This document shows, piece after piece, positions 3,259 to 28,208 of a stretch of DNA of 32,000 nt. Position numbers and translations under genes: made by a program. How positions within the stretch are numbered: position 1 is the stretch's first letter; each line of letters opens with the position of its first letter. Below the pieces are notes generated by a model, which saw only the letters and a list, made by a program, of their open reading frames with translations, had not been told where the DNA came from and searched no databases. Origin of the DNA: Candidatus Babelota bacterium (lineage in GTDB: Bacteria > Babelota > Babeliae > Babelales > Vermiphilaceae); contig JBDHVY010000001.1 of the NCBI GenBank assembly GCA_039809905.1, forward strand, positions 1 to 32,000, written 5' to 3'.

Positions 3259-3340
3259 ACACAACCCTTTTTTTTATACTTTTCCCACCGTTTTTATGTA
3301 ACAAAAATAGAGTAATGGTGTCAATAAAAGGATCGATAAC

Positions 3341-4184: not shown

Positions 4185-4229
4185 CTTAGTCCCTTCCACT
4201 ATTATTATTTTACCTTGCACACAAAAAAT

Positions 4230-5609
4230 TTATTCAAAATCAGGAGAATCCTCGAACTTTGTAATTTCTCTGATAAAATTCATAAACACAGTTCCTGTTG
4301 GTCCATTACGGTGTTTTCCAATAATAAGTTCTGCCAATGCCGGATTTTCTGTATCTTGATTGTAAACATAATCGCGATATAGAAACATGATAACATCAGC
4401 ATCCTGTTCAATAGCTCCTGATTCACGTAAATCAGATAAAATTGGCCTTTTATCCATACGACTATCAACTGCCCGTGAAAGCTGTGATAACGCAATTATC
4501 GGGATATTAAGTTCCTTTGCTAATGCTTTGAGTGAACGTGAAATTTCAGACACTTCTTGATGTCGGTTTTCATGTTTTTTACTGGAATGTAACAATTGCA
4601 AGTAATCAACCACCAAAAATTGTAACCCATGCTCAATTTTTAATTTGCGCGCCTTTGCCCGCAGATCCATAATAGTAAGCATGGGTGTATCATCAATAAA
4701 AACTTTCATTTCAGCAAGTTGCGCAGCAACATTGGTTAAATCAATCCATTCATCAGACGAAATGGTGGCATTTCTGATATTATGATGACCAATTCCTGAT
4801 TCTGCTGATAAAAGACGCAAAGTCAGCTGTTCTGCAGACATTTCTAGGGAGAATATACCGGTAGCAAATCCATTGCGTGCAGCGGTAAGAGCAATACCAA
4901 GCGATAGTGCAGTTTTACCCATAGAGGGTCGTGCTGCAAGAACGATAAAGTCGCTATTTTGAAAGCCCGATGTCATTTGATCAAGTTGAGCAAAACCAGA
5001 AGGAATACCTGTTATACCTTTTGTATGACTTTTAATATCAGAAAGATGCTGAAATGTTTTTTTTAACCAAATATCAAGTTGTACAAAACTGTTGCTCGAC
5101 CGCTTATTTGAAATATTGAAAATGATTTTCTCTGCATCATCAAGCACTGCATCTATTGAATCCTCATCTTGTGTGTAGCAATTAGAAATAATTGTTGCCG
5201 CAGAACCAATGAGTTGACGCAATACTGATTTTTCTTTAATAATCGTTGCATGCTGAATAATTAATCCAACAGAAGGTATATCTTCCTGTAGCGTAAGAAG
5301 GTATACAATACCTCCAATGGCATCTAATTGATCTCGCTTAGTCAATTCATCTTGTAAGGTAACAATATCGATTCGTTTATGCTTTTGACTAAGATCAACT
5401 ATAGCCTGATAGATCATTTTATGGGCAACATTATAAAAATCATCAGGAGTAATAACTTCTGCAACCGCACTGATATATTCATCATTTAATAATAATGCTC
5501 CTAAAACAGCTTTCTCTGCATCAATATTGGCAGGAAGACTTTTACCAAGAACCCCTTCAATAGAAGGTTTTTTTGGTACAATGTTATTGTAAGAAGCATT
5601 TTTATTCAT
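4230..5609 (-). CDS. dnaB: replicative DNA helicase DnaB
   Basis: 459 aa. N-terminal AEKAVLGALLLN, Walker A AARPSMGKTALSLG, Walker B FLVVDYLQL, and SQLSRAVDSR / ESGAIEQDAD motifs typical of DnaB. Confidence 0.97.
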   Translation of the reverse strand: MNKNASYNNIVPKKPSIEGVLGKSLPANIDAEKAVLGALLLNDEYISAVAEVITPDDFYNVAHKMIYQAIVDLSQKHKRIDIVTLQDELTKRDQLDAIGGIVYLLTLQEDIPSVGLIIQHATIIKEKSVLRQLIGSAATIISNCYTQDEDSIDAVLDDAEKIIFNISNKRSSNSFVQLDIWLKKTFQHLSDIKSHTKGITGIPSGFAQLDQMTSGFQNSDFIVLAARPSMGKTALSLGIALTAARNGFATGIFSLEMSAEQLTLRLLSAESGIGHHNIRNATISSDEWIDLTNVAAQLAEMKVFIDDTPMLTIMDLRAKARKLKIEHGLQFLVVDYLQLLHSSKKHENRHQEVSEISRSLKALAKELNIPIIALSQLSRAVDSRMDKRPILSDLRESGAIEQDADVIMFLYRDYVYNQDTENPALAELIIGKHRNGPTGTVFMNFIREITKFEDSPDFE

Positions 5610-7190: not shown

Positions 7191-9080
7191 ATGACATATC
7201 GCAATCTATTTTTTTCTGGGCTAATGAGCATGTTTTGCTTCATTTCATTACCTATGTTGGCAGGTATGATGCCAAATATGGAAGATTTTGAAAAAGAACT
7301 TTTAGAAGCAAATAGAGCAATTGAAGAATACGTCGCAAGTCTTTCACCAGAAGAACAAGCAGCATTCAACAAACAAGTAGAAGAATTTTCACAACTGTTT
7401 GAAAATATGAGCGAGGATGAATTTGAACAGTTTTTAGGCGAAATGTTTGCTGATGAGCCAATGATGATGGAACCAAATCCATTTGATGTTCCTCAACCAA
7501 CACCACAAGAAGAAGTGGTTGAAGTTGTTTTAAGTACTGAAGATAAAAAGAAAGCAGAAACTGCTCTTGCCGTGCTTGATGATATTATTAAACAATCTAA
7601 CCTCTTTATGGTAATGATAAATAGTTCTTCAGATTTGCCAAACCGCATCAATCAATGGGCAAAAAAAGGTGACTTGCTTCACTGGCAAAGTGGAGCAGAT
7701 TGGGTAGCTTTCAAACTAGAACTTGATACATTTATTCAAAAGCTTTATAAAGCAGAAGAACAAGATTTAACAACTAAAAAATACAAATATCTTCTTGAAT
7801 TAATTGCTGATGAAAGTTTGTATAACAACCTTATTCAATTACAGACCGAGCTTAAAAAACTAATCCCAACAATCGAAATTCCAGAATTCAGTATCCAGAA
7901 ATTAAGTTCTGATACAAAAAAAGCAATAAAAAATGTTTTAGGTACCTATACAGAAAGTTTCTATTTACTCGGAACTCCTAAAGCACTTGATACTCTTTTT
8001 GAAAAATATGCACCAGAAGAAGAGAAAATACGTACCGCAGAAGAAGCGGCAAACAAAAGATCCCTTGAAGCCTCCAGAATGACGAGAACTCCTGCGGGAG
8101 AAACCCATGCTGGTATGGACGAGGATATGGGATATGGTGATTATGGTTATGGATACGATAATTACTATGGCGGCGGTTATGGATCTCCTTATGGTTATGA
8201 TAATTATGGCTATGACAATTATGGTGGTTATTCACCTGATTATGGCTCATATGGTTCTGATTATGGTACGGGCCGCAGTAATTCAGGTGGAAGAAGTGGT
8301 GGTGGCAGCGGTAGTTCCGGATCACGCGGCGAATCAGATTCTGAAAAATCAAAAAAAGATAAAGAAGATGAAGATAAAAAAGACAAAAAATCTAAGCCAG
8401 CACGATTTATACCTAACTATGATGTTGAACTAGCATTTGCAGATATCAAAAGTAATTTTAAAGATATCAACAGTCTTTTTGTAGATGAAGAAGAAAATAA
8501 AACCAAATTAGCTGATATTGCAAGCCATCTCAATGACGATAAAGAAGTGAATGTTATTCTTGCGGGAGCTACATTACCAACAGTAGAAAAAAAGCTTACT
8601 GCTATTTATGATGATCTTAAAAAAATCAATGAAAAAGTTGATGATAAAAAACTTAAAGCTGATGAATTAAGCTATTATCAGAAAGAAATCAACAAATTTT
8701 TTGATGACAATAAAAAAGAAGTGGAAAGCTTACGCACAGGCATAAATTCTTTTGAAGAAAAAACTGACGAACAAAAAGAAGCAGCAAAAAAAGAAGAAGA
8801 AGCTAATCCTTCTCCTGCAGAAAAACCTAAAAAAACCGATATTTCTGATCTTTCAGAAGAAAAACGATGGGCATATTTTGGTAAAGAAGTACCAGGTATA
8901 GATGAAAAACTTCAAGAAGCTATCACCTCAAAAGTATCACTGTTTGATATCAGAAGTAAAATTACTGACATTTTTGATGAACTAAAGAAATTTATGTCAA
9001 AAAAAATAGCTGTTCCAAAGAAAAAAGCTGAAACTCCAAAAGAATCCAGTTCTCCGGATAAAACTTTTGATCTTGATTAA
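7191..9080 (+). CDS. secreted acidic low-complexity protein with central G/Y-rich domain
   Basis: 629 aa. AAAGG lies upstream of the ATG. Leader MTYRNLFFSGLMSMFCFISLPMLAG. Acidic helical N-terminal half, a G/Y/S-rich block (approx 8112-8330), K/D/E-rich spacers and a K/E-rich C-terminal half. A strong terminator follows. Confidence 0.85.
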   Translation: MTYRNLFFSGLMSMFCFISLPMLAGMMPNMEDFEKELLEANRAIEEYVASLSPEEQAAFNKQVEEFSQLFENMSEDEFEQFLGEMFADEPMMMEPNPFDVPQPTPQEEVVEVVLSTEDKKKAETALAVLDDIIKQSNLFMVMINSSSDLPNRINQWAKKGDLLHWQSGADWVAFKLELDTFIQKLYKAEEQDLTTKKYKYLLELIADESLYNNLIQLQTELKKLIPTIEIPEFSIQKLSSDTKKAIKNVLGTYTESFYLLGTPKALDTLFEKYAPEEEKIRTAEEAANKRSLEASRMTRTPAGETHAGMDEDMGYGDYGYGYDNYYGGGYGSPYGYDNYGYDNYGGYSPDYGSYGSDYGTGRSNSGGRSGGGSGSSGSRGESDSEKSKKDKEDEDKKDKKSKPARFIPNYDVELAFADIKSNFKDINSLFVDEEENKTKLADIASHLNDDKEVNVILAGATLPTVEKKLTAIYDDLKKINEKVDDKKLKADELSYYQKEINKFFDDNKKEVESLRTGINSFEEKTDEQKEAAKKEEEANPSPAEKPKKTDISDLSEEKRWAYFGKEVPGIDEKLQEAITSKVSLFDIRSKITDIFDELKKFMSKKIAVPKKKAETPKESSSPDKTFDLD

Positions 9081-9702: not shown

Positions 9703-10830
9703 ATGAAAAAAATAGCTGCAATAACTTATGCCATTGCCTTGATGGTATGTGTTAATCTCACATGTTCAGAATTAAAGACTTTTAATGCCAAATCAAAAAG
9801 CTCTAATAAACCACTCAGTTTTGCTGAAAAAAAACTAGGTGATCATGCAAAAAGAATGGTTGAAACAACAACATATCAGCATGGCTCTTTTGAACACATT
9901 CGCGATTTAGCAATTTTAAGCGTATTACCTACTCCAATATCACAAGGAATATTGTCTCAACAAAGAAACAATATGCTAACATTTTTGGAAAAAAATGAAA
10001 AACAAGCACTGGAGGGAGTTAAAAATTATTGGGGTTTTGATTCAGCGACATGGTCAAATATTCTAGAAAAAAATAAAAAAGAACATGAATTTAATCTTGC
10101 AGAAATGAGAAAAAATACTGATAATCGAGCTACTTATCACAATCCATCTTTGCCTGCTGCATTCATGGTGGGAGTACAACGCGAATGTCTTCGGTATGGT
10201 TTTAATAAAAACAATTTTAACCTCGGAACAACGGATAATGTGCATGAATTAGCTCATTGCTTTGAACACAAACAGCTTGCGCCAAATATGTATACTCCTG
10301 CAAATGTTAACTTTAACTTACGTTATGCATGGCGTCCCCAAGAATCAATTGATGGCACAGCAACTCATGAATTTACCCACATAATAAAAGGTCATAGCTT
10401 GTTAAGGCAAAATATCGTCTATGGAGGCGGCGAGCAAATGATTAATAATATAAATGAGTACTGGCAACAAAATAAGCCAAGCTTTCTCGTTTTATTTAAT
10501 CCTTTTTATTCTATAGATGAAGACTTGAGAAAATTAGAACAATATTCTACAACGCAAATAGAGAAAATAGAGACTTATTCAGGTTCCTGTGAGGAAATGA
10601 ATCTTACCGCTGCTCAAGAAAAAACTGCCGATACTTATGTAATCTGTATCGATCCGCAAGCAGCAAAAAATGTTCCCTCTATTGTCCAATATTCAGGATA
10701 CACAGACAATCATAATGATATGAAAGTAATACACAGAAATTGGCAAGCAACTAGAGCGATCGAGGCTTCAAAACCATTGCGTCGAGCAATCGGCTCTGCG
10801 TGTGGCCAACAAGAATGTACTATTTTATAG
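9703..10830 (+). CDS. secreted hypothetical protein with two HExxH motifs (possible zinc metallopeptidase)
   Basis: 375 aa. Leader MKKIAAITYAIALMVCVNLTCS. Motifs NVHELAHCFEH and ATHEFTHIIKGHS. Family not recognised beyond the motif. Confidence 0.8.
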   Translation: MKKIAAITYAIALMVCVNLTCSELKTFNAKSKSSNKPLSFAEKKLGDHAKRMVETTTYQHGSFEHIRDLAILSVLPTPISQGILSQQRNNMLTFLEKNEKQALEGVKNYWGFDSATWSNILEKNKKEHEFNLAEMRKNTDNRATYHNPSLPAAFMVGVQRECLRYGFNKNNFNLGTTDNVHELAHCFEHKQLAPNMYTPANVNFNLRYAWRPQESIDGTATHEFTHIIKGHSLLRQNIVYGGGEQMINNINEYWQQNKPSFLVLFNPFYSIDEDLRKLEQYSTTQIEKIETYSGSCEEMNLTAAQEKTADTYVICIDPQAAKNVPSIVQYSGYTDNHNDMKVIHRNWQATRAIEASKPLRRAIGSACGQQECTIL

Positions 10831-10870
10831 TAATAAATTACGGTAAATCATTTCGATTAAAATTTTAGAG

Positions 10871-10902
10871 GCCTGCTGCTATTAAAGCAGGCTTCTTTTT
10901 TT
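10871..10902. terminator. terminator between convergent genes (9703-10830 and argR)
   Basis: GCCTGCT (10871-10877) / AGCAGGC (10886-10892), followed by TTCTTTTTTT on the plus strand. Confidence 0.75.
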
Positions 10903-11359
10903 ATCTCATTTTTAAATATGGAAAAAGCGATTCAAAGAGAGCAATAACTTCTTTGAGCGCAATTTTATTTTTTACAATAACCATAACAGTATCATCTCCT
11001 GCTATAGTACCCAAAATTAATGATTTTTGCTCATCATGAAGATCATAAGAAACATATTTTTGATCTATAAAATAAGCTAAGCTATTTGCATTACCTGGGT
11101 GAGTATGCAGAATAATCAATCCGGAATCGGAAGCCTTCATATTCAACACAACAGGCAAAGAAAATGAACTAAAATCAATAATCTTATAAACCCCATCGAC
11201 CTTAGCAATATTTAGTTTTTTGAGCTTTCTTGATAAGGTTGCTTGAGGCACATCGCATCCACGCAACTTCAATAACTCCTGTAGATCAGCTTGTTCTCGC
11301 ACTTGTTCATTCTGAATTATATTCATTATATGGTTTTCTACCATCTTTTTTGATTCCAT
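10901..11359 (-). CDS. argR: arginine repressor ArgR
   Basis: 152 aa. N-terminal winged-helix (QADLQELLKLRGCDVPQATLSRKLKKLNI) and C-terminal GTIAGDDTVMVIVKN oligomerisation/arginine-binding motif. Confidence 0.9.
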   Translation of the reverse strand: MESKKMVENHIMNIIQNEQVREQADLQELLKLRGCDVPQATLSRKLKKLNIAKVDGVYKIIDFSSFSLPVVLNMKASDSGLIILHTHPGNANSLAYFIDQKYVSYDLHDEQKSLILGTIAGDDTVMVIVKNKIALKEVIALFESLFPYLKMR

Positions 11360-11392
11360 TTTTTACTTTCTATATTCAAATTAAGCATATAT

Positions 11393-11410
11393 TTTGAAAA
11401 TATATTCAAA
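11393..11410. promoter_or_regulatory. ARG-box-like operator proximal to argR
   Basis: ttTGAAAatatATTCAaa compared with the E. coli ARG box consensus TNTGAATWWWWATTCANW. Lies 34-51 nt upstream of the argR ATG. Confidence 0.5.
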
Positions 11411-11415
11411 GCTGA

Positions 11416-11444
11416 TTGACTTGTCAAATATCTATTGCTATATT
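11416..11444 (+). promoter_or_regulatory. sigma70-like promoter for the DIT1/PvcA-like gene pair
   Basis: TTGACT (11416-11421), 17-nt spacer, TATATT (11439-11444), counted base by base. About 95 nt upstream of the ATG at 11541. Confidence 0.5.
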
Positions 11445-11449
11445 CATTA

Positions 11450-11478
11450 AGTGAATATTTATTGAATGCGCATTCATT
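11450..11478. promoter_or_regulatory. two overlapping ARG-box-like operators at the predicted transcription start
   Basis: agTGAATatttATTGAat (11450-11467) and atTGAATgcgcATTCAtt (11461-11478, perfect TGAAT/ATTCA palindrome), immediately downstream of the -10 element. Confidence 0.5.
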
Positions 11479-11540
11479 TTAGATAAAAACACGATTTTTT
11501 AACAATATCATCTAAATTCTGATCAATTATAAGGATTATA

Positions 11541-12707
11541 ATGAAATTTTATATAAAAGTTATGGCGATCCTTGGAGCTCTAACTATCTATAACAGCAAC
11601 TATTCGAGTGAATTACCTGGTTTTATTCAAAAATATCATAGCTCTATTCCGTCTCTCGAATATGATTCAAATAAAAGCTTTTCTCCAAAAGATCAGGCTT
11701 CCATTATTGGAAACTATCTTTGTAAGTTTATTCCACAAATCAAAACTTTATCCTTGAATGGGCATGATAAATTAGAAAACAAACTTGAATATCTGATCAC
11801 TAATCAAAAGCAGATACAGCTTGTTATTTTAGGTTTTCCTTTTAAATCAACTAATCATGAAAAAAAATGTTTGAGCTCAGAAGCTGACTTGGGAGAATAT
11901 TTAGGACTTACTACGCTTAATCAACTTGTGTACAACATTAAATTATTATATCCAAATACCCATTGCGCTATTATCTCAGATGGTCTTGCCTATCATATCA
12001 ATAATTATGATCCTTCTTATGAAGAAATTCATAATTATCATGCAAGAATAAACGATTTAACAACTCATTTTAAAAATGTATCATTTATACCATGGAAAAT
12101 TAACAACAAGTTGGGTTCGTATCAAGAATTACAAGAAGCTGTTGCTGCTGTTCCATTAGAAAATGAGGAAAATAGCGATCAAAAGCGCTATCAAGAAATG
12201 AAAGCTTTTGCTTCTAGTGAATTCAAGTGTACTCATTGGGAAAATTTTTTTCTCAATAAAGCTCTTAATTCATATAATGAAAGACAACAGTTTGAACAAA
12301 AAGAACTAAAGCAAAAAAACAAAGATCAAGCAATCAAAACTGAAAAAAATACTCTCATTGCAGAAAATATGAAGTTGATTATTCCTCAGCTTGTATATAA
12401 AGGAAAACAGTTTTCTACTTTAGTAAGCACGCAGTGGCCTGATTATGATGAATGCATACGTCTTTCTGTGCACTGTGATAAAAATGTTGTTGATGTATCA
12501 ACCAAAATACCCATAAATATTATATATGGACATTCAGGAACACCATGGCATAATGCAATAGTCATTGATAATACTGATACGCAAGTGAAAGGATTTGCTA
12601 AAGATATTTTCAAAAAAAATGATCTCAATCTTTTAGCTAAGTCCAAAAAAACATTTTCGTTAAAAACTCCCGCAGGTATACTACCATTATCATATATTGC
12701 TCATTAA
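11541..12707 (+). CDS. DIT1/PvcA family protein (isonitrile synthase-like), paralogue 1
   Basis: 388 aa. LVILGFPFKSTNHEKKCLSSEADLGEYLGL...LLYPNTHCAIISDGLAY matches the conserved core of the pyoverdine/dityrosine biosynthesis family (PvcA: FPAKSPN..KVLG..PD.AE...Y.PGA...I.SDG.VF). Hydrophobic N-terminus MKFYIKVMAILGALTIYNS. AAGGA SD. Confidence 0.8.
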   Translation: MKFYIKVMAILGALTIYNSNYSSELPGFIQKYHSSIPSLEYDSNKSFSPKDQASIIGNYLCKFIPQIKTLSLNGHDKLENKLEYLITNQKQIQLVILGFPFKSTNHEKKCLSSEADLGEYLGLTTLNQLVYNIKLLYPNTHCAIISDGLAYHINNYDPSYEEIHNYHARINDLTTHFKNVSFIPWKINNKLGSYQELQEAVAAVPLENEENSDQKRYQEMKAFASSEFKCTHWENFFLNKALNSYNERQQFEQKELKQKNKDQAIKTEKNTLIAENMKLIIPQLVYKGKQFSTLVSTQWPDYDECIRLSVHCDKNVVDVSTKIPINIIYGHSGTPWHNAIVIDNTDTQVKGFAKDIFKKNDLNLLAKSKKTFSLKTPAGILPLSYIAH

Positions 12708-12719
12708 TACGGATTTATC

Positions 12720-13739
12720 ATGCACATTAAAAAAATAGTCATTATCTTTACGGTTGTTTGTTTATCATTTTTTTTACAAGAACATTCGTATGTACCAAAA
12801 AATCATGCTTTATGTGATAGCAAAACAATAAAAAATATAGTTAATATTTTTCAACAACATACGTTAACATATGATATTGATAAAAAAAGTGTTAACGATA
12901 CAGATATTGCATTACATATACGCACGATAGATGAATATGCAGAATTATCCAGAAAGCTTGCTTATTTTATCAAAGAAGAAAAACCAATTATTCTTACTAT
13001 GGTAGGATTTCCATATAAGTCATCTAATACACAGGATAAAGTCATATCTTCTTGTGCAGATGCCGCCGAACGATATTCACTGGTCTATCTACAAAATTTC
13101 TTAAACCACATTAAATCCATTTATAAACCTGGTATAAAACTGCGCATTTTTACTGATGGGATAGCATTTTGCGATATAGAACAGGTGCCAGATGATATTG
13201 TAATGCAATACGAAGATACACTAAAAATCATAACGCAGGATCTTCCTGATATAGAAATATGTACCATGCGTGATTTATGTTCAAAACAATCCCCTATAGA
13301 AATACGAAAAAAAATATCAAACATGTATCCATCTCTTGAAGAATTTCATACTATGCTTGAAAATGATAAAAAGTTACAGGATGACACCAATATTCTTACG
13401 CAAAGAATGGATTTTGAGTTAGCTCTTTTATCATTGAGTGATGAACAAATCGCAAATATTGGATTACAAGAAATGCACAGAAGTCTTCAATATAGCACTT
13501 TTTTGAAACAATTTCGCCCAGAAGAAACTATTTCATGCTCTGTACACTACCAAAAAGATCTTTCCAAAAAAATTGGATTGAAATTATCTGATTCATGCGT
13601 AACTGCATGGCATGGAGTTCTTGTTGAAACAAATGGTAATTTTATTATTGAACACTTAAAAGATATTGATCTATCAAAGTATCAACGAACAGAATGGATG
13701 GTGAATGGCGTATCACTTCCATACTTGAAAAATACATAA
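12720..13739 (+). CDS. DIT1/PvcA family protein (isonitrile synthase-like), paralogue 2
   Basis: 339 aa. ILTMVGFPYKSSNTQDKVISSCADAAERYSLVYLQNFLNHIKSIYKPGIKLRIFTDGIAFCD is a closer match to the PvcA/Dit1 core. Hydrophobic N-terminus MHIKKIVIIFTVVCLSFFL. Starts 12 nt after paralogue 1. Confidence 0.85.
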   Translation: MHIKKIVIIFTVVCLSFFLQEHSYVPKNHALCDSKTIKNIVNIFQQHTLTYDIDKKSVNDTDIALHIRTIDEYAELSRKLAYFIKEEKPIILTMVGFPYKSSNTQDKVISSCADAAERYSLVYLQNFLNHIKSIYKPGIKLRIFTDGIAFCDIEQVPDDIVMQYEDTLKIITQDLPDIEICTMRDLCSKQSPIEIRKKISNMYPSLEEFHTMLENDKKLQDDTNILTQRMDFELALLSLSDEQIANIGLQEMHRSLQYSTFLKQFRPEETISCSVHYQKDLSKKIGLKLSDSCVTAWHGVLVETNGNFIIEHLKDIDLSKYQRTEWMVNGVSLPYLKNT

Positions 13740-13825
13740 ATATGGTTGCTTTTGAAATTTTTTACATTTTTTTATGGCTTTGCTATAGTAACAGCGAATT
13801 ATACGTCAAACAAAAGGAGTATTGC

Positions 13826-14500
13826 ATGTCTATACAAAAATTATGTCTTTTTCTATCGCTATTTAGCTTATGGACACATCACAGTTATTGCGCTATGAAT
13901 GAGATAGAACCCATTAAAATTGATAATGGATTATTAACAGAAGTACCAAAAATACTTCTTGCTACTAAAGGATATTTCTTCGATGGGGCTCGGCGTGTTA
14001 ATAAGGGTGTTTTGCGAGCAGATACTACATCTACTTTAGCAGAGTTAATGGCTATAAATCGTACAGAAATAGAGTTTGATCCTCTACAAAGAGGCATTCC
14101 CTATCTACTATTTTTTCCTACGGTAGTAAAAGCAATTGATAACAATCTCATAAATCTTGGCTCATATTGTAAAGCAAAACACAAAGAAGCAAAAGAAGCT
14201 TGTCGTCAAAACAAAGCTATTTTTTATCCTTTTCAACAAGGATTAATTATTTATAGTAACCAATTATCAGATTTTAAATTTTTTAGAGAAAAGAAAAAAG
14301 AATTAGAGGATATGGCTCATCACAATTTAGAGCAAAAGTTTCTTGCTTACACTTCTTTATTGCATGTTATTTCTGTTGAACCTGATTTTTCTGTTAAGCC
14401 TAAAAAAGACAATACAACTGTCGAAGAAAATAATGTGAATGCAACAACTAATAGCTTGGCACAAAGCGTTTTGAATTTCTTTGGAATTAACCCGAATTAA
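13826..14500 (+). CDS. secreted hypothetical protein (224 aa)
   Basis: The track ORF starts at 13694 and overlaps the previous gene. ATG at 13826 follows AAGGAG. Leader MSIQKLCLFLSLFSLWTHHSYCA|MN. Confidence 0.8.
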   Translation: MSIQKLCLFLSLFSLWTHHSYCAMNEIEPIKIDNGLLTEVPKILLATKGYFFDGARRVNKGVLRADTTSTLAELMAINRTEIEFDPLQRGIPYLLFFPTVVKAIDNNLINLGSYCKAKHKEAKEACRQNKAIFYPFQQGLIIYSNQLSDFKFFREKKKELEDMAHHNLEQKFLAYTSLLHVISVEPDFSVKPKKDNTTVEENNVNATTNSLAQSVLNFFGINPN

Positions 14501-14521
14501 AATTTAAATTTTTTCAAAGAT

Positions 14522-14558
14522 AAAAGAAGGGCCTGTAATTTACAGGCCCTTCTTTTAT
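14522..14558 (+). terminator. rho-independent terminator
   Basis: Perfect 16-bp stem AAAAGAAGGGCCTGTA (14522-14537) / TACAGGCCCTTCTTTT (14541-14556) with a 3-nt loop. Confidence 0.9.
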
Positions 14559-14698
14559 TGCTATGTAACTATTGGTGATTCATTTTACCTGATTTTTGAA
14601 TACTTCAGAAAAATTAAATTAAACTGTTTACTTTTGCCCTACTTGTAAAATATACTCAAATAGAGTATATTTGTTTAAAAAAAAAAGGGAGACGTGTC

Positions 14699-14989
14699 AT
14701 GAAAAAAATGATACTGATAGCTATTATAGCAGCAACAACTGCTTGCCAGATAGATGCAAAACTGACCCAAGCCGCACTTGCCAAGATAACCAGCACAGAT
14801 TTTGATACAATAATGGGATCTTCTTCAAGAGAAATGTCACAGCAAAGACTGAATAGATCTTGGCGTAATTTTTCATCATATCAAAAAAAGGATATTCTTT
14901 TGCATATGTATGAAGAAGGCGCATTATCTGAAGATGATGTAGTTAATTGGAATCTGAATCAGATACCACAAATCACTATCGGTGGATAA
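14699..14989 (+). CDS. small secreted protein, paralogue A (96 aa)
   Basis: GGGAGA SD. Leader MKKMILIAIIAATTACQIDA. The C-terminal 38 aa are nearly identical to paralogue B. Candidate promoter TTGTAA (14643-14648), 17-nt spacer, TATATT (14666-14671). Confidence 0.85.
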   Translation: MKKMILIAIIAATTACQIDAKLTQAALAKITSTDFDTIMGSSSREMSQQRLNRSWRNFSSYQKKDILLHMYEEGALSEDDVVNWNLNQIPQITIGG

Positions 14990-14999
14990 TATTGAGAAC

Positions 15000-15037
15000 A
15001 ATAAAGGATGAGATAATTGATTATCTCATCCTTTATT
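15000..15037 (+). terminator. hairpin terminator after paralogue A
   Basis: Perfect 17-bp stem AATAAAGGATGAGATAA (15000-15016) / TTATCTCATCCTTTATT (15021-15037) with a 4-nt loop. The T-tail is modest. Confidence 0.65.
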
Positions 15038-15041
15038 GTTC

Positions 15042-15138
15042 TTATCTTACTATCTTTCGACATCTTCTACATAAATTATTAGGATCACCTTTTCCCCGCT
15101 GCATGTTCAACAAAAGTAAACAATTCTTGTAATTCCGT
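15042..15138 (-). pseudogene. relic of the ileS 3' end (duplication remnant, internally deleted)
   Basis: My hand alignment with 15546-15673: TTATCTTACTATCTTT(C/T)GACATCTTCT... and ...TTCCCCGCTGCATGTTCAACA..AAACAAT(T/C)CTTGTAATTCCGT. About 31-33 nt encoding the CPRCW zinc-knuckle segment are missing. The track ORF 15085-15297 ends ELQELFTFVEHAAGKR, compared with ileS ELQGLFARVEHAAGKK. Confidence 0.8.
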
Positions 15139-15159
15139 ATAGAGTAAGGGAGACGTATC

Positions 15160-15456
15160 ATGAAAAAAATGATACTGATAGCTATTATAGCAGCAACAAC
15201 TGTCTGCCAAGTACATGCAAAACAGCCACAAAATGTGTTTGAAAACAGAATAAAGACAGATTTTAATGCAATAATGAACTCTTCTGCACGAGAACAAAAA
15301 ATGTCACAACAACGCCTGGATAGATCTTGGCCTTATTTTTCATCGTATCAAAAAAAAGACATTCTTTTGCATATGTATGAAGAAGGCGCATTATCTGAAG
15401 ATGATATAGTTAATTGGGATCTGAATCAGATACCACAATTCACTATTGGTGGATAG
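15160..15456 (+). CDS. small secreted protein, paralogue B (98 aa)
   Basis: Same SD and leader as paralogue A (MKKMILIAIIAATTVCQVHA). C-terminus SYQKKDILLHMYEEGALSEDDIVNWDLNQIPQFTIGG. Confidence 0.85.
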   Translation: MKKMILIAIIAATTVCQVHAKQPQNVFENRIKTDFNAIMNSSAREQKMSQQRLDRSWPYFSSYQKKDILLHMYEEGALSEDDIVNWDLNQIPQFTIGG

Positions 15457-15545: not shown

Positions 15546-18461
15546 TTATCTTACTATCTTTTGACATCTTCTGCACAAATCATCAGGGTCACTTGTTATG
15601 TCCCATTGCCAACAGCGAGGGCATTTTTTCCCCGCTGCATGTTCAACACGAGCAAACAATCCTTGTAATTCCGTTTCTTCGAGATTTGTTGCATCATGGG
15701 CAATGGTACATTGCGAAACAATTAAAAATTCTCGCAAGAAATCTTCAACTGCTTCACCCTTGTCTTCAAGCATTACAAAGAAATCATTTATTTGTTTGTA
15801 ATGTTCTGCTGTTGGGTCAAGATATAAAGTAACTTGTGCTTCCAAGGAATGTTTTACAATGTGTTTTTCACGCTGTAATTCAATTGCTTTAAGCAATGAC
15901 GAACGAACATCTTTGAGTATTTCCCAAACATCTTCTTGCGCATGACGCGATCCAATTTCTTCTACTTTATACATTGTTTCAGTAAATGTGCGACGCCCTA
16001 TTGCATCAGGCTGAGCTACATATTTTCTTTGTGCCAATGTCTCCCAAACATTTTCAACAACAGCAAACTGTTGCAAATGAATGGAATCAGTTTTATTTTT
16101 CTGATATTCATCTGATAATTGCTCGGCTGTAAATGATAAAATTGGTGCCATGAGCTTGGTTAATGTATCAAGAATTGCATAACATACTGTTTGTGCTGAA
16201 CGCCGTGCAATCCCATCATTCTTTTCAACATATAACCTATCTTTAATGATGTCTAAGTAAAATGCGCTCAAAGTAACGGAGCAATAATTACTCAGTAATT
16301 GAGAAACACGTGTAAAATTATATTCATCATATGCCTGAAGAACTTCTTGATTGAGGACAAACAACTCTTGCAACGCATACTGATCAATTACGTGCATTCT
16401 TTCAACTAAAACAGCATCTTTGGATATATCAAAATCATTGATGTTGGAAATTAAGAACCGACACGTATTACGAATCTTTCTAAATACCTCTTGTACATTT
16501 TTTAGCAATACTTCGGAAACAACCGCATCACCAGCATTATCAATTGTTGATGCCCATAGACGCAAACCATCAGTGCCTAATTTTTCAATCATTTCACCAG
16601 GAGATACAACATTGCCTAATGATTTAGACATTTTACGCCCTTGCGCATCAACAGTAAAACCATGAGTTACAATTGTTTTTGTACATGGCGTTTCTTCAAG
16701 AATCATACTTGTCAGCAATGAACTCTGGAACCATCCACGATGCTGATCTTTACCTTCAAGATACATATCAGCAGGATATGCTAGTGCAGGATTTTGTTTG
16801 AGTACTGCATAATGACTAACTCCAGAATCAAACCATACATCAAGAATATCGGTTTCTTTACGGAGACAACCCGTTATACATTGCGGACATGTAGAATTAT
16901 CTACCAATAAATCAACCGATGCAGTATCCCAATATTCTATGCCTTTTTGGGTAACGTGTTGTGCAACATTATCAATGAATTCTTTGTTTGTATGTACATA
17001 ATCGCAACTATCGCAAATTAATGCTGGTATTGGAACCCCCCATTCTCGCTGACGAGAAAGACACCATTCGAGTCTTCCTTCTATAGTTGCTTCAAAACGA
17101 TTATGAGATGCAGCAGGAAGCATAGTAATGCGTGAAACTGCTTGGCATGCATTTTCTTTAAGATTATTTTTTGATAAATCACAAAACCACTGCTTGGTTG
17201 CACGGAATATTAATCCGCCGCGGCAACGCCAGCAATGAGGATAAGAATGCTTAATGCTTGTTTTTAATAATAATGTATTACGATCAAGTAGCTTTTGAAT
17301 TACCCATCCTTGTGCGCTTGCAACAGACATTCCAATAAGCTCAATTGGTTTAATATCACGTGTATAATGCCCATCAGGAGTAATTGGCGAATAAATTTCT
17401 AAGCCGTTCTTTACACCAACTTCATAATCAATAGGCCCAACACCTGGAGCACTATGTACACATGCAGTACCATCATCAGTTGAAACTGAATCATCAACTA
17501 AAACAGGAACAAAAAAATCATCTATAAATGGATGTGCTACTTGTGCCTGTGCATCTATAAGTAATTGTGAATCGAAAGTAATTGCTATATTTGCTTCAAT
17601 ACCAAGTAATTGAGCAACTTTATCAGCGAGAGATTTTCCGACAACAATATAATTATTAGCTGTTTCCAAAATAGCGTATTCAGTATGTGGTTTTAATAAA
17701 ACTGCTCGGTTAAGTGGCAATGTCCATGGTGTTGTTGTCCAGACAAGCAAACTAATTGGCTTATTGTTCAGCTCTGGAAAGAGCTCAATTTGGGTGCTTT
17801 TTTTCAAAGAAAAAAGTACATAAATTGATGGATCCTTGCGATCATTGTATTCAATTTCAGCCGATGCTAAAACTGTTTGGCACGTTGGGCACCAAGGCAC
17901 TGTTTTATTTTTTCGTTCAATATAGCCACGCTCAACGAGCACTCCAAAAGAACGTAAAATATTGGCTTCATAACCAAAATCCATGGTCAAATAAGGATTG
18001 TCCCAATCCATTATTACGCCAAGTTGTTTAAATTCTTGTCGTTGCACATTGATCCATTTATTGGCATATTCACGACATGCTTTTTTTAATGCATCTCCTT
18101 GCAGTTGTGGAGTCTCTTTTTTCACTGCAAATTCAATGGGCAATCCGTGACAATCCCATCCTGGAGTGACGGGAACGTGTTTCCCCATCATGCGCTGGGA
18201 CTTGGTAACAATATCTTTTAAAATCTTGTTATATGCGTGTCCTATGTGCGTATGGCCATTAGCATAGGGAGGACCATCATGTAAAATAAATTTTTCTTGA
18301 CCTTTATGCATATTGAATGCTCGCTGGTACAAATCCTTGCTATTCCAGCGTTCGATCATTTTTGGATCATCTTCCTTATGATTTGGTCGAATTGGAAAAT
18401 CGGTATGAGGCAGATTAAGTGTGTCTTTAAAGCTTTTTTTCTCATTAGTATCTTGGGACAT
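15546..18461 (-). CDS. ileS: isoleucine--tRNA ligase
   Basis: 971 aa. Class I HIGH motif (PYANGHTHIGHAYN), KMSKS motif (RKMSKSLGN), editing-domain insertion, C-terminal CPRCW...CRRC zinc knuckle. Confidence 0.98.
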   Translation of the reverse strand: MSQDTNEKKSFKDTLNLPHTDFPIRPNHKEDDPKMIERWNSKDLYQRAFNMHKGQEKFILHDGPPYANGHTHIGHAYNKILKDIVTKSQRMMGKHVPVTPGWDCHGLPIEFAVKKETPQLQGDALKKACREYANKWINVQRQEFKQLGVIMDWDNPYLTMDFGYEANILRSFGVLVERGYIERKNKTVPWCPTCQTVLASAEIEYNDRKDPSIYVLFSLKKSTQIELFPELNNKPISLLVWTTTPWTLPLNRAVLLKPHTEYAILETANNYIVVGKSLADKVAQLLGIEANIAITFDSQLLIDAQAQVAHPFIDDFFVPVLVDDSVSTDDGTACVHSAPGVGPIDYEVGVKNGLEIYSPITPDGHYTRDIKPIELIGMSVASAQGWVIQKLLDRNTLLLKTSIKHSYPHCWRCRGGLIFRATKQWFCDLSKNNLKENACQAVSRITMLPAASHNRFEATIEGRLEWCLSRQREWGVPIPALICDSCDYVHTNKEFIDNVAQHVTQKGIEYWDTASVDLLVDNSTCPQCITGCLRKETDILDVWFDSGVSHYAVLKQNPALAYPADMYLEGKDQHRGWFQSSLLTSMILEETPCTKTIVTHGFTVDAQGRKMSKSLGNVVSPGEMIEKLGTDGLRLWASTIDNAGDAVVSEVLLKNVQEVFRKIRNTCRFLISNINDFDISKDAVLVERMHVIDQYALQELFVLNQEVLQAYDEYNFTRVSQLLSNYCSVTLSAFYLDIIKDRLYVEKNDGIARRSAQTVCYAILDTLTKLMAPILSFTAEQLSDEYQKNKTDSIHLQQFAVVENVWETLAQRKYVAQPDAIGRRTFTETMYKVEEIGSRHAQEDVWEILKDVRSSLLKAIELQREKHIVKHSLEAQVTLYLDPTAEHYKQINDFFVMLEDKGEAVEDFLREFLIVSQCTIAHDATNLEETELQGLFARVEHAAGKKCPRCWQWDITSDPDDLCRRCQKIVR

Positions 18462-18942: not shown

Positions 18943-20715
18943 ATGTTGCACAAAATCTTCTTAAAACAATCCAGTATCTTGATGGCTGGTGCTACGTTGC
19001 TATCGTTTTCGTCTATCAAATCTGAAAATGATATATTAAGATCAAATCTCTTTGATGTTCGAGATAAAAATATTGGTGTTAATAACAGCCCCAATTCAGA
19101 TCTTAGTAATAGTTGCTTATCTGATTTGGCTGTTACTGGTGATACCGCAACCATTTTCCGTAATTCAGTGGCAGAACCATCCCTTGCTGTTAATCCCTTA
19201 AATAAAAAACAAGTAATAGCTGTATACGAACAAGATATTATAGGCAGCAACGAAATTGGCAATTTGGGTTCTTTAAGCATAGGTATTGCTCGTTCTGAAA
19301 ATGGTGGTAAAACCTGGATTACAAGTGATTCTTTAAACACTCAAATATGCAATGGTGGATTTGCACAAACTGTTGGCAATGCCCGTATCACCTATGCAAA
19401 TAATGGAATAGCATACTTAACTGCTACCTTTGCAAATGTTCAAAACAATCCGAATAACCTTAATCAATCAGGCGTTTTTGTATCACAATCAGAAGATAAT
19501 GGTAAAACATGGAGTTTTCCAATTATTTTGGATGCAAGTTCAAATAACTTAAATGATCAAACAAGTACTTCTCCATTCAGCACTATATCAAATGTTTCTG
19601 TAGATCCTAATAATGCAAATAATGTGTATGTTACTTGGGGACGCACTCCTAATGATGCTTCTTTAAGTTCTAATGCTATTATCAGTTTCTCAAGAGATGG
19701 CGGACTAACGTGGTCAGATAATGCCGTGTTATATAATCCATTTTTAGATACAACATTTGCAGCTATAAATAATGGTATTGCTAACAATATGAGCGTAACT
19801 AATAATACTATTATAACTCAGCCAAATGGTAATGTTTTAAATTTCATGACACGCACCTATGCAGCACCAGGAACAACTAACATGCAATTTGTTAATGATG
19901 TATGGCCATATCAATATCGTTTATTTGATATTGCATTTACCAGCTCAACTGATAATGGAGTAACATTTAATACAAGTGCACGAGTAGTGACGACTATTGA
20001 TGGTAATTCAACATTTACTGGTGGATATACGTATAGTGGTGCTGACATTACTGGTGGCGTTGGTGCACAAATAAGCACCGAAGGAAGCAATCAGTTTTTT
20101 GATGTTGCAATTAATCCAGAAAATGGTTATCTCTATGTAGCTTACCAAACAGGAGAGTTTACTGCTAACCAACTTCCTCAAATCGCTCTTGTTACTTCAC
20201 GCGATGGTGGTTTAACATGGTCTCAACCTGCACGCGTAAGTAGAACACCGGTTAATTCACCAAATCCTCAAGCATTTACCCCAGCTATTGCTATAGCAGA
20301 ATGTGGCGTTGTAGGAGTTCTGTATCAAGATTTCCGTAAATCTAATGTAAGCATTCCCACTACTAATACTAATACCAAAACAAATGTATGGTTTGCTCAG
20401 TATCAAGAAAAAAACAATCCTACTGGCGGTAGCACTGGCATAGGGTTAGATTTTGTTAATGAAGTGCTTGTTTCTAAGCATTCTTATAATATACAAACAG
20501 GACCTGCTGTTGAAGGTGGTATTTTAACTAATGGCAATTTTGCCAGCGTAGATGCTCTTGGTGATGATTTTTATGCCGCATATATTAAAACTAATAATAT
20601 TCAAATCATACCAGCACAACCGCTTGTTGATAATCCTGAAACAGAAACTATTTTGTTACTTGAAAACAATAGAAGAACATCTCCGTTCTTTAGCAGAATA
20701 GATGCAAAACATTAA
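18943..20715 (+). CDS. secreted BNR/Asp-box repeat beta-propeller protein (sialidase-like fold)
   Basis: 590 aa. Five Asp-boxes (S-x-D-x-G-x-T-W/F): SENGGKTW, SEDNGKTW, SRDGGLTW, STDNGVTF, SRDGGLTW. Leader MLHKIFLKQSSILMAGATLLSFSS. No clear FRIP catalytic motif seen (only IFRNS). Confidence 0.85.
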   Translation: MLHKIFLKQSSILMAGATLLSFSSIKSENDILRSNLFDVRDKNIGVNNSPNSDLSNSCLSDLAVTGDTATIFRNSVAEPSLAVNPLNKKQVIAVYEQDIIGSNEIGNLGSLSIGIARSENGGKTWITSDSLNTQICNGGFAQTVGNARITYANNGIAYLTATFANVQNNPNNLNQSGVFVSQSEDNGKTWSFPIILDASSNNLNDQTSTSPFSTISNVSVDPNNANNVYVTWGRTPNDASLSSNAIISFSRDGGLTWSDNAVLYNPFLDTTFAAINNGIANNMSVTNNTIITQPNGNVLNFMTRTYAAPGTTNMQFVNDVWPYQYRLFDIAFTSSTDNGVTFNTSARVVTTIDGNSTFTGGYTYSGADITGGVGAQISTEGSNQFFDVAINPENGYLYVAYQTGEFTANQLPQIALVTSRDGGLTWSQPARVSRTPVNSPNPQAFTPAIAIAECGVVGVLYQDFRKSNVSIPTTNTNTKTNVWFAQYQEKNNPTGGSTGIGLDFVNEVLVSKHSYNIQTGPAVEGGILTNGNFASVDALGDDFYAAYIKTNNIQIIPAQPLVDNPETETILLLENNRRTSPFFSRIDAKH

Positions 20716-27491: not shown

Positions 27492-28208
27492 ATGAAAAAA
27501 ATAGTAGCATATTCTTACCTATTCTTTTTTGCATGTTCGATTCAGCAACATTTATACAGTTCCATGCAAAAACCAAAACAAAAAGATCTCATGGTGGCTC
27601 TACAGGCAATGAAACGACCAAGAACAGAATATCTTGCAACACAAAACCCAAAAAAAGAAGATCTTGTACCAGCACTGCAAGCAATGAAAAGACCAAGACC
27701 TGAGTTTGTTGTAAATGAAAAAGCACCCAAAAGACAAAAAATAACAGCCAAAACTTTTGAACATGATAAAAATAAACATATAGAAAAGAAACGATATCCA
27801 TGCAATTTATGCCCTTCATCTTTTGATCAATCAAAATCTCTTGAAATACATACGAGAATTCATACAGGAGAAAGACCCTTCTCGTGTACTGAGTGCACAG
27901 ATTCGTTTATACGCAAGGAACATCTGACAAGACATATGAATATTCATACAGGAAAAAAGCCTTATGAATGTGCAACCTGTTTCAAATCATTTGCACTAAA
28001 GCAAACTCTCAAAGAACATATAAGAATTCATACAGGAGAAAAGCCATATAAGTGTGATTTATGCCCAAGATCATTTACGAAACTATACGGTTTAAATATT
28101 CATCGTGATACCCATAACGATGAAAAAAAATTCCCCTGTAATCTGTGTGATGAAAGATTTACCACGCATGGTAGTCGATCAAAGCATATAGAAAGAAAAC
28201 ATTCTTAA
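27492..28208 (+). CDS. eukaryote-type C2H2 (Krueppel-like) zinc-finger protein with five tandem fingers, Sec-like leader and NLS-like repeats
   Basis: 238 aa. Five C-x2-C-x12-H-x3/4-H units joined by HTGERPF / HTGKKPY / HTGEKPY linkers. N-terminus MKKIVAYSYLFFFACSIQQHLYSS|MQ, then two 23-aa repeats containing ALQAMKRPR. Stop lies 3 nt before the murD ATG. Confidence 0.9.
   Translation: MKKIVAYSYLFFFACSIQQHLYSSMQKPKQKDLMVALQAMKRPRTEYLATQNPKKEDLVPALQAMKRPRPEFVVNEKAPKRQKITAKTFEHDKNKHIEKKRYPCNLCPSSFDQSKSLEIHTRIHTGERPFSCTECTDSFIRKEHLTRHMNIHTGKKPYECATCFKSFALKQTLKEHIRIHTGEKPYKCDLCPRSFTKLYGLNIHRDTHNDEKKFPCNLCDERFTTHGSRSKHIERKHS

Follow-up and report, generated by a model that had tools for sequence, protein, structure and literature searches.

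What do two proteins of the isonitrile-synthase family do beside an arginine repressor in a bacterium of the Dependentiae, and on which side of the membrane would they do it? The question is raised by a locus in a stretch of Candidatus Babelota DNA 32,000 nucleotides long (the window), which has a GC content of 29-38% and whose proteins find their nearest matches in metagenome-assembled genomes (MAGs) labelled by their submitters as Candidatus Babeliales (Dependentiae/TM6). Two adjacent genes in this window encode DIT1_PvcA proteins, referred to here as A (the A-type protein) and B (the B-type protein), and the arginine repressor gene argR lies divergently from them across a short spacer; related loci from other genomes are numbered L0xx. 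The isonitrile synthases known so far are cytosolic and belong to the secondary-metabolite clusters of free-living bacteria and fungi. The answer that we consider probable, if by a modest measure, is that A and B form an operon which is repressed by ArgR, is induced by arginine limitation and encodes an extracytoplasmic enzyme pair of the isonitrile-synthase family, an answer in which we infer the binding of ArgR, the direction of regulation, the export, the heteromer, the substrates and the product.

An earlier note on this DNA had assigned both open reading frames (ORFs) to the PF05141 family, and the profile scores bear this out: against a cut-off of 26.4 bits, A scores 112.7 bits (E 3e-32) and B 119.2 bits (E 2.9e-34), and the motif core quoted in the note, GFP(F/Y)KS...DG.A(F/Y), is found in A and B alike. 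The comparison of structural models with PvcA that the note had proposed gives the same answer. The AlphaFold2 (AF2) models have a predicted local distance difference test score (pLDDT) of 90.9 for B and 88.7 for A, and the only significant neighbours of either in the Protein Data Bank (PDB) are PIsnA and PvcA; Foldseek aligns B to 9dhm, 9dh4 and 3e59 at E 6e-20 with template-modelling (TM) scores of 0.75-0.83, and its best folds for A are PIsnA and PvcA at E 2e-13 and TM 0.5-0.7. By phmmer against PDB sequences, B matches PIsnA (9dh4, 2e-23) and PvcA (3e59, 2e-17), and the match of A is weaker (9e-8). The PIsnA entries 9DH4 and 9DHM are recently solved complexes with L-tyrosine and with an isonitrile product. 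Homologues of the two proteins are already annotated in databases as 'L-tyrosine/L-tryptophan isonitrile synthase family protein', so that the family membership is not in itself new.

For the evaluation of individual residues, the family was sampled by searching the representatives exhaustively (740 clusters at E <= 1e-3), and near-invariant positions were defined by the family-wide columns of 38 aligned signal-less members, not by catalytic sites taken from the literature. The positions which are near-invariant in canonical members are F-P-x-K-S, K, D...E, Y, D-G, Y, (R-L)-S-x-H, K and P-W-H. At least 15 invariant family positions are kept in both A and B, and A retains R307-L-S309-x-H311; the lack of conserved catalytic-type residues, by which the note's reading would have been refuted, is thus not seen. 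Because nearly all of the invariant residues are kept, both A and B look catalytically competent as judged by conservation. The Arg that precedes S-x-H is 97% conserved in canonical synthases, is replaced by Ser/Thr in the Babeliales B-types (ISCSVH, ITCSVH) and is invariant in their A-type partners (IRLSVH); the resulting contrast between S272 in B and R307 in A may reflect complementation within a heteromer.

The oxygenase that usually accompanies PvcA was said by the note to be missing from the window, and no TauD/PvcB-like ORF turned up there when all of its roughly 30 substantial ORFs were scanned. No Fe(II)/2-oxoglutarate (2OG) oxygenase was seen among the neighbours examined at roughly 18-20 related loci either, where in L014-L046 only part of the ORFs were scanned. 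A COMT-like O-methyltransferase (Methyltransf_2 5e-31 plus a dimerisation domain) with a signal-like N-terminus is encoded on the minus strand at L006 8977-10083, its gene being convergent with A-B. It is confined to this lineage, is possibly a tailoring enzyme and hints at a phenolic (Tyr-derived) product.

Both proteins begin with hydrophobic segments (MKFYIKVMAILGALTIY... in A and MHIKKIVIIFTVVCLSFFL... in B), an oddity which the note had remarked upon and which proves to be a property of the whole clade. All 12 proteins first examined have hydrophobic N-termini, and by a simple hydropathy criterion they are present in 42/56 B-clade and 14/16 A-type proteins, as against 9/70 other family members. 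The short h-region of A is followed by a polar junction that is kept in its orthologues (IYS/SELP, NHA/SESP and IYT/AELL, the slash marking the junction), and the segment is modelled by AF2 as a separate helix on a low-confidence linker; in the model of B, a helix covering residues 2-23 is followed by a linker, residues 24-29, with pLDDT <50. Distant B-types carry classic cleavable or lipoprotein-type signals with AXA or lipobox motifs, for example ...LQA/AEV, ...LTAC and ...FLSSC. The A-type N-termini look like short cleavable signal peptides and those of the Babeliales B-types like longer uncleaved signals or anchors; the segment of B itself would be either an uncleaved signal or a membrane anchor. 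Since Sec-type N-terminal signals or anchors are predicted on both proteins, A and B most likely act outside the cytoplasm, in the periplasm, at the membrane surface or possibly beyond. In Chromulinavorax destructans, a cultured member of the Dependentiae without amino-acid biosynthesis, 44% of the proteins carry signal peptides (PMC6561590).

The note had described A and B as tandem paralogues. They are indeed adjacent members of one family, but they are not recent duplicates: the identity between A and B is only about 22%, and over four Babeliales lineages that between orthologues is 47-52% for A-types and 54-59% for B-types. In every complete locus (roughly 18-20 distinct ones were compared, loci cut by a contig end being left out) an A-type gene adjoins a B-type gene, in the order A-B or B-A, and neither a lone A nor a lone B occurs among these complete loci. 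Distant loci that contain the pair (L009, L011, L014-L019, L025, L033, L035 and L040) come from genomes which their submitters labelled Alphaproteobacteria, Pseudomonadota or simply 'bacterium'. In one sub-clade (L021, L022, L024, L036 and L039), B adjoins a protein of 377-433 aa that is an A-type in strongly degenerated form, in which GSAFKS replaces GFPFKS and IRD replaces SDG; in the two of these that were compared and scanned, only profile-profile matching with hhalign recovers the relationship, at 94% (L021) and 82% (L024) probability, and Pfam gives no hit. Such a degenerate A-type may be a pseudoenzyme partner. To judge from these identities and neighbourhoods, A and B are an ancient, obligately co-inherited pair rather than recent paralogues, and their pairing in every complete locus suggests a heteromer or a two-step function.

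The regulator opposite the pair is recognizable as a full-length arginine repressor, in the divergent position that the note had given it. The N-terminal winged-helix DNA-binding domain (Arg_repressor PF01316, 6.6e-13, 48.7 bits) and the C-terminal hexamerisation and arginine-binding domain (Arg_repressor_C PF02863, 7e-15, 55.1 bits) are both found above their Pfam cut-offs, and alignment to the ArgR of PDB entry 5cj9 shows that the arginine-binding motif GTIAGDDT and the wing-helix recognition motif QATLSR are both kept. The equivalog level of TIGR01529 is not reached (89 bits, cut-off 130.45), and by these measures the window ArgR is a divergent but full-length member of its family. It is 69-77% identical to the ArgR encoded at the same position in L003, L006 and L007. 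The published regulator list of the cultured Dependentiae member Chromulinavorax destructans contains no argR.

The spacer between argR and the pair is only 181 bp long, with a GC content of 21%, and its layout carries the case for arginine-responsive control. When sigma-70-like promoters are scanned for over positions 10800-14700 (3.9 kb), the two top matches form a mirror pair within the spacer, back to back; one of them is the TTGACT-17-TATATT promoter named in the note, and the other faces argR. Their abutting -35 hexamers form a palindrome of which 8/12 columns are invariant, as TTGACnnGyCA, in the window, L003, L006 and L007. Around these promoters lie three candidate ARG boxes, scored against the 18-bp E. 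coli ARG-box consensus TNTGAATWWWWATTCANW. The two overlapping palindromes to which the note had drawn attention (11450-11478) are boxes 2 and 3, whose overlap of 7 bp is atypical compared with the usual spacing of 3 bp; the counterparts of box 3 are GTTGAATATATATTCATA in L003 (one mismatch) and AATGAATATATATCCACG in L007, and the unusual core GAATGCGCATTC, present in the window, recurs in L035 and L015 as the GAATGCGCATTC / TTTGAATGTGCATTCAAA variant. Box 1 had been placed correctly by the note, as a third box near argR, but its position was understated, because the -10 hexamer (11399-11404) of the second, divergent argR promoter falls inside it.

Whether such words are more than a product of an AT-rich spacer can be judged in two ways. 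The half-sites TGAAT/ATTCA occur 6 times in the 181-bp spacer and 12 times in the 4098 bp of the other 17 intergenic regions, an 11-fold enrichment (Poisson P = 2e-5), and counts of at least 6 arise in 9/20000 shuffles of the spacer; the ARG-like words are therefore commoner here than in other AT-rich intergenic regions, the opposite of which the note had named as grounds for rejection. In the four lineages with argR divergent from the pair (the window, L003-5, L006/L013 and L007/8, whose proteins are about 50-60% identical), aligned spacers have invariant columns at 13/18 positions of box 1 (72%), 67% of the -35 palindrome and about 40% of boxes 2 and 3 (7-8/18; 7/18 in box 2), as against 0-17% in the remaining spacer (0/11 and 6/62 in the neighbouring stretches). 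The arginine-responsive control of the pair that the note had proposed is thus supported in silico by the half-site enrichment and by the conservation, in four lineages, of the boxes and of the divergent arrangement itself.

Relatives outside these four lineages extend the connection. In L015, L033 and L035 argR is not adjacent, and ARG boxes with 1-3 mismatches are nonetheless kept upstream of A-B; in L035 the layout (a box, TTGACT-17-CATAAT, further boxes) follows the order of the window. Since the boxes are kept without an adjacent argR, the A-B promoter, and not argR alone, appears to be their target. In L017 the genes form the string argR-SBP_bac_3-B-A-BPD_transp_1-ABC_tran, with a divergent ArgR, a GlnP-like permease and a GlnQ-like ATPase, and this string is preceded by TTGACT and by a pair of ARG boxes, one perfect and one with 1 mismatch, which lie 4 bp from each other. 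The order in L016 is permease-ATPase-B-A, and L006 and L011 have an importer of the same type within 5 kb of the pair; the binding proteins score best to lysine/arginine/ornithine and GlnH models. A LysE-type exporter and an aminotransferase adjoin the pair in L014. Two peculiarities of the L017 assembly deserve mention: in this MAG the B gene shows a frame problem of one nucleotide at an A7 run close to its start, and the 333-bp gap between the binding-protein gene and B (4188-4520) contains an inverted repeat that is long and nearly perfect (CGTCATCCTCGCGAATGCGGAGATCCAGG ... CCTGGATCCCCGCATACGCGAGGATGACG), perhaps a strong hairpin or an insertion of the REP/MITE type.

A different kind of signal is found in ten B-A lineages without ArgR, all outside the window, in which B is preceded, at a distance of 35-60 nt, by a conserved leader ORF of 11-16 codons with a good Shine-Dalgarno sequence. 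The consensus of the leader reads hydrophobic-x-W-(x)-R-W (TGG CGA TGG), with MSIKFNTWRWYSV, MRNLYLQCWRWQFTF, MIILYIHWGRWQLNA, MNNLFLHWWRW, MHILQLHWWRW and MNILHLHCWRW as examples, each running to a stop codon. The leader matches no Rfam family, and RNAalifold gives it no consensus structure and no consensus terminator or antiterminator; in six loci the eye picks out a short TCAAC/GTTGA hairpin downstream of the leader, but it lacks covariation and is not claimed. E. coli TrpL and TnaC (MNILHICVTSKW...) and the fungal arginine attenuator peptide are leader-peptide control systems, which the W-R-W leader of the relatives resembles in composition, whereas the window locus has no such leader. The leader is a candidate Trp/Arg-sensing attenuator or arrest peptide, and the short distance of 35-60 nt to the gene indicates translational rather than classical transcriptional attenuation. 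With ARG boxes in one group and the leader in another, the pair would be tied to amino-acid sensing in every lineage, and arginine would be the signal shared by the ArgR operators and the candidate leader.

The mechanism that these observations suggest would operate as follows. When arginine is ample, hexameric ArgR with bound arginine would occupy the boxes on both sides of the spacer, possibly bridging over the shared -35 region, so that the argR and A-B promoters would both be off; a shortage of arginine would derepress both. Because the boxes lie on the -10 and +1 regions, repression is indicated rather than activation. A and B, probably as a heteromer with B as the near-canonical subunit and A as its divergent partner, would work outside the cytoplasm. 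In an intracellular parasite, amino acids and sugar phosphates of the host could cross the outer membrane into the periplasm, which makes PvcA-like chemistry conceivable there. By analogy with PvcA and IsnA, the alpha-amine of an amino acid and a keto-sugar phosphate would give an isonitrile, whose hydrolysis would yield an N-formyl amino acid; there would be no follow-up Fe/2OG oxygenase and no oxidative decarboxylation step. The pair would in this way join an arginine-limitation regulon together with a polar-amino-acid (Art/Gln-type) ATP-binding cassette (ABC) importer.

A much more specific version of this scheme holds that the A/B heteromer, periplasmic or secreted into the host, makes isonitriles from host ribulose-5-phosphate and amino acids when arginine or tryptophan runs short, as a counter-measure against the host. 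The substrate would then possibly be arginine and/or tryptophan rather than tyrosine; the isonitriles, which are strong haem and copper ligands, would inhibit host enzymes that act in the consumption of those amino acids or in defence of the cell; and two interchangeable sensors, ArgR operators or the W-R-W leader, would serve the different lineages. Taken as a whole, this version strikes us as decidedly improbable.

Several observations weigh against an ArgR-repressed, extracytoplasmic isonitrile-type pair. Neither protein approaches the PvcA equivalog NF045653, which represents L-tyrosine isonitrile synthase (A 46.3 and B 84.9 bits, cut-off 600); with scores so far under the cut-off, A and B are members of the family and not PvcA orthologues, and their substrate or product may differ from a Tyr or Trp isonitrile. 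Each also departs from the family at one near-invariant position, B by having S272 in place of the Arg two residues before S-x-H and A by having N139 in place of a Gly. The absence of PvcB holds for the window and about 20 neighbourhoods, and a PvcB-like gene may conceivably lie elsewhere in the genome. With regard to location, ribulose-5-phosphate is not a normal periplasmic metabolite, and several B-types have more positive charges after the hydrophobic segment than before it, which fits a cytoplasm-facing anchor. With regard to control, the loose 18-mer ARG consensus shows no enrichment across the window (10 matches, 7 expected; 2 and 1.2 in a further scan), conservation is lower in boxes 2 and 3 than in box 1, the ARG boxes of L006 are degenerate, and box 1 could serve argR autoregulation alone. 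Upstream of the ABC importer in L006 and L011 there is no ARG box at <=2 mismatches, so that co-regulation of the importer is unsupported in those two loci.

Two rival explanations concern what the enzymes do and where. If the N-termini do no more than anchor A and B to the inner membrane, facing the cytoplasm and perhaps next to the importer, the pair could belong to a canonical cytosolic isonitrile pathway, making a Tyr or Trp isonitrile from bacterial ribulose-5-phosphate, with a PvcB/IsnB-type or other tailoring enzyme encoded elsewhere and a product used, like paerucumarin, rhabduscin or xanthocillin, for metal binding or host antagonism. Both the Tyr-binding PIsnA and PvcA are clear relatives of B, the charge distribution round the B-type hydrophobic segment is ambiguous, a COMT-like O-methyltransferase of the sort typical of phenolic natural-product tailoring stands beside the pair in L006, and tandem IsnA homologues (AmbI1/I2) are familiar from cyanobacterial hapalindole clusters; yet the A-type N-termini resemble short cleavable signals, distant B-types have AXA or lipobox signals, the L006 methyltransferase has a signal-like N-terminus of its own, no oxygenase appears in any of the roughly 20 neighbourhoods, and both proteins score far under the PvcA equivalog cut-off. 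We regard a tethered pathway of this kind as unlikely, though as a contender to be taken seriously. That low similarity to the equivalog would be expected if the pair had abandoned isonitrile chemistry altogether and become a periplasmic accessory of the Art/Gln importer that frees arginine, and perhaps tryptophan, from a host compound such as an N-substituted or glycated amino acid, which would explain co-repression with arginine uptake. ArgR-repressed regulons classically hold arginine-supply genes, the pair lies between the binding-protein and permease genes in L017 and after the permease and ATPase genes in L016, export signals are clade-wide, and the Trp/Arg-codon leader ORF of the relatives follows a starvation-type logic. 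A salvage function nevertheless appears unlikely to us: nearly all canonical invariant residues are kept in both proteins, which argues for conserved chemistry, no precedent for an activity of this kind is known within PF05141, and the transporter link is missing from the window and from several other lineages.

The other two rivals concern the control region. The ARG boxes might serve argR autoregulation only, with A-B adjacent by history and not controlled by arginine, and it is true that box 1, on the argR -10, is the best and best conserved match and that boxes 2 and 3 deviate more. Those two boxes, however, lie on the A-B start and are footprinted at 7-8/18 columns against 0/11 and 6/62 nearby, L015, L033 and L035 have ARG boxes on both sides of the A-B promoter without an adjacent argR, and in L017 argR precedes the pair within a single gene string, so that we give this explanation a very small chance. 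Smaller still, to the point of being hardly credible, is the chance that the ARG-like words arose by accident in AT-rich spacer DNA and that the promoters are wrongly assigned. The 21% GC content, the frequency of promoter-like hexamers over the 3.9 kb (26, and 23 in shuffles) and the unenriched loose consensus would allow it, but it would leave unexplained the half-site excess over other intergenic regions and over composition-matched shuffles, the block-wise conservation over four lineages, and the fact that the two top promoters are an exact mirror pair in the spacer.

Table 1. Coordinates of the features of the argR/A-B locus in the window, and of leader ORFs and degenerate A-type genes in related loci.
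Feature	Locus	Coordinates	Strand	Description
Terminator-like hairpin	window	10867..10896	+	11-pair stem then T run; between the upstream 375-aa gene and the argR 3' end
argR	window	10901..11359	-	152 aa; full-length arginine repressor, divergent from A-B
ARG box 1, TTTGAAAATATATTCAAA	window	11393..11410		17/18 consensus matches (1 mismatch); best in the 32-kb window
argR promoter	window	11399..11427	-	TTGACA-17-TATATT; 11/12 consensus positions; best promoter-like match in 10800-14700; predicted start about 11392
Palindrome TTGACTTGTCAA	window	11416..11427		two abutting back-to-back -35 hexamers of the divergent promoters
A-B promoter	window	11416..11444	+	TTGACT-17-(TG)TATATT; 10/12 positions plus extended -10 TG; predicted start about 11451
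ARG box 2, AGTGAATATTTATTGAAT	window	11450..11467		2 mismatches; covers the predicted A-B transcription start
ARG box 3, ATTGAATGCGCATTCATT	window	11461..11478		overlaps box 2; core TGAATGCGCATTCA a perfect 14-bp palindrome with GC centre
A-type DIT1_PvcA protein (A)	window	11541..12707	+	388 aa; divergent partner; helical insertion of about 60 residues
Signal-peptide-like segment of A	window	11541..11609	+	residues about 1-23; short h-region then polar ...YS/SELP junction
B-type DIT1_PvcA protein (B)	window	12720..13739	+	339 aa; nearer the canonical isonitrile synthases; begins 12 nt after A
Hydrophobic segment of B	window	12720..12785	+	residues about 1-22; MHIKK then about 15 hydrophobic residues
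Leader ORF	L018	5860-5901
Leader ORF	L019	5794-5835
Leader ORF	L020	5767-5814
Leader ORF	L021	2323-2370
Leader ORF	L022	2797-2844
Leader ORF	L024	5756-5791
Leader ORF	L036	5907-5954
Leader ORF	L039	5865-5900
Leader ORF	L041	875-910
Leader ORF	L011	7913-8026
Leader ORF	L009	7916-
Degenerate A-type gene	L021	3361-4662
Degenerate A-type gene	L022	3835-5136
Degenerate A-type gene	L024	7020-8153
Degenerate A-type gene	L036	6986-8242
Degenerate A-type gene	L039	7013-8287

The terminator-like hairpin beyond the 3' end of argR is the predicted left boundary of the module. On the right, a 268-aa ORF which seems to overlap the end of B was considered as part of the operon and rejected: it has its own AAGGAG Shine-Dalgarno sequence and a true start at 13826, it has no Pfam match, and its position is taken by other genes in relatives, so that it is a separate, unrelated, signal-bearing gene. 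A recent horizontal-transfer island was rejected as well, since the same flanking genes (RuvC-DnaB-L9 ... IleRS) are found in the window, L003 and L007.

Elsewhere in the window, several genes are of interest in their own right. A 629-aa signal-bearing protein without a Pfam match (7191-9080, plus strand) has a low-complexity core rich in Gly, Tyr, Ser and Asp (YGYDNYYGGGYGSPYGYDNYGYDNYGGYSPDYGSYGSDYG...), and at the same place beside argR in L003 and L007 stands a protein of much the same length for which no Pfam hit is recorded, the likeness being one of position and length alone. The region 14699-15456 contains a pair of small paralogous ORFs (96 and 98 aa), each with a signal, in a tandem duplication of about 460 bp. 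The duplication took in roughly the final 40 codons of ileS as well; tblastn finds an IleRS C-terminal fragment at 15045-15162, ahead of the intact gene (15546-18461). Just upstream of murD, the gene at 27492-28208 (plus strand) encodes a protein of 238 aa that consists of C2H2 zinc fingers of the eukaryotic type (zf-H2C2_2 5.6e-36, zf-C2H2 3e-22), and L003 has a homologue at this position; the protein may have been acquired horizontally from a eukaryote, or it may act as an effector directed at the host. Finally, two large, probably surface or secreted proteins, both conserved in L007, are encoded at 496-3264 (minus strand) and 18943-20715 (plus strand), one of them with a Peptidase_S74 domain (intramolecular chaperone/tailspike-like) and the other with a BNR/sialidase-like domain.

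As the earlier note had supposed, the connection seems not to have been described before: a literature search found no paper linking Dependentiae to ArgR or to isonitriles. What appears to be new, in that no description of it was found, is the signal-bearing A/B subfamily, its ArgR operator layout, its recurrent embedding among arginine-type importer genes and the W-R-W leader. The pair represents a distinct and widely distributed PF05141 subfamily in genome-reduced, probably host-dependent bacteria. Should the proposed mechanism be true, it would supply a testable circuit for the Dependentiae, a phylum in which hardly any regulator or small-molecule chemistry has been assigned, it would point to extracytoplasmic isonitrile chemistry or to a new PF05141 activity, and it would give ArgR, as a host-niche sensor of the kind known from Chlamydia and Legionella, a new output.

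Among known systems, the nearest enzymes are PvcA, IsnA and PIsnA (3E59, 9DH4, 9DHM), which share the Pfam family, the fold and the near-invariant residues with A and B. The identity to them is only 15-23%, however, and there are further differences: those enzymes are cytosolic, whereas A and B have a predicted N-terminal export signal or anchor; A and B are paired in all complete loci seen; no PvcB/IsnB oxygenase, glycosyltransferase or other cluster genes adjoin them; and in place of iron, quorum or LysR/PtxR-type regulators they would be under the control of ArgR. The pvcA and pvcB genes of Legionella are canonical and encode cytosolic proteins, and we know of no report of their regulation by ArgR. 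Two PF05141 genes side by side, as in the A/B pair, also occur in the cyanobacterial hapalindole/welwitindolinone clusters, where the tandem IsnA homologues AmbI1/AmbI2 and WelI1/WelI2 are near-identical, cytosolic and followed by an IsnB homologue; A and B, in contrast, are about 22% identical, anciently diverged, signal-bearing and located outside a large cluster. Yeast Dit1, which makes N-formyl-tyrosine for the dityrosine of the spore wall, and the stand-alone isocyanide synthases of fungi show that a PF05141 enzyme can work without a PvcB-type oxygenase and that a formamide product is possible (PMC5974471, PMC10153163), but these enzymes are eukaryotic and cytosolic, have a P450 partner (Dit2) or a fusion to a dioxygenase or a domain like those of non-ribosomal peptide synthetases (NRPS-like), and are not controlled by ArgR.

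For the regulation, the closest parallels come from bacteria that live inside other cells. In Chlamydia pneumoniae, ArgR represses the arginine importer operon glnPQ through ARG boxes (PMC2175317). That bacterium is obligately intracellular and has no arginine biosynthesis, its ARG boxes are in tandem, and the gene string of L017 is the same type of operon with A and B inserted; the chlamydial regulon contains no PF05141 genes, whereas the genes that would be regulated in the window are the enzyme pair, with no transporter within 32 kb. Legionella pneumophila, likewise an arginine auxotroph, uses ArgR in amoebae to control secretion-system and other non-biosynthetic, host-related genes (PMC12341379). 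That paper, summarising Hovel-Miner 2010, presents ArgR as a host-niche sensor in this protist-grown auxotroph, and the targets that it names, type IV secretion components and effectors, differ from the A/B pair. Together, the Chlamydia and Legionella precedents support a role for ArgR as a sensor of host nutrients, the role that it would play upstream of A and B.

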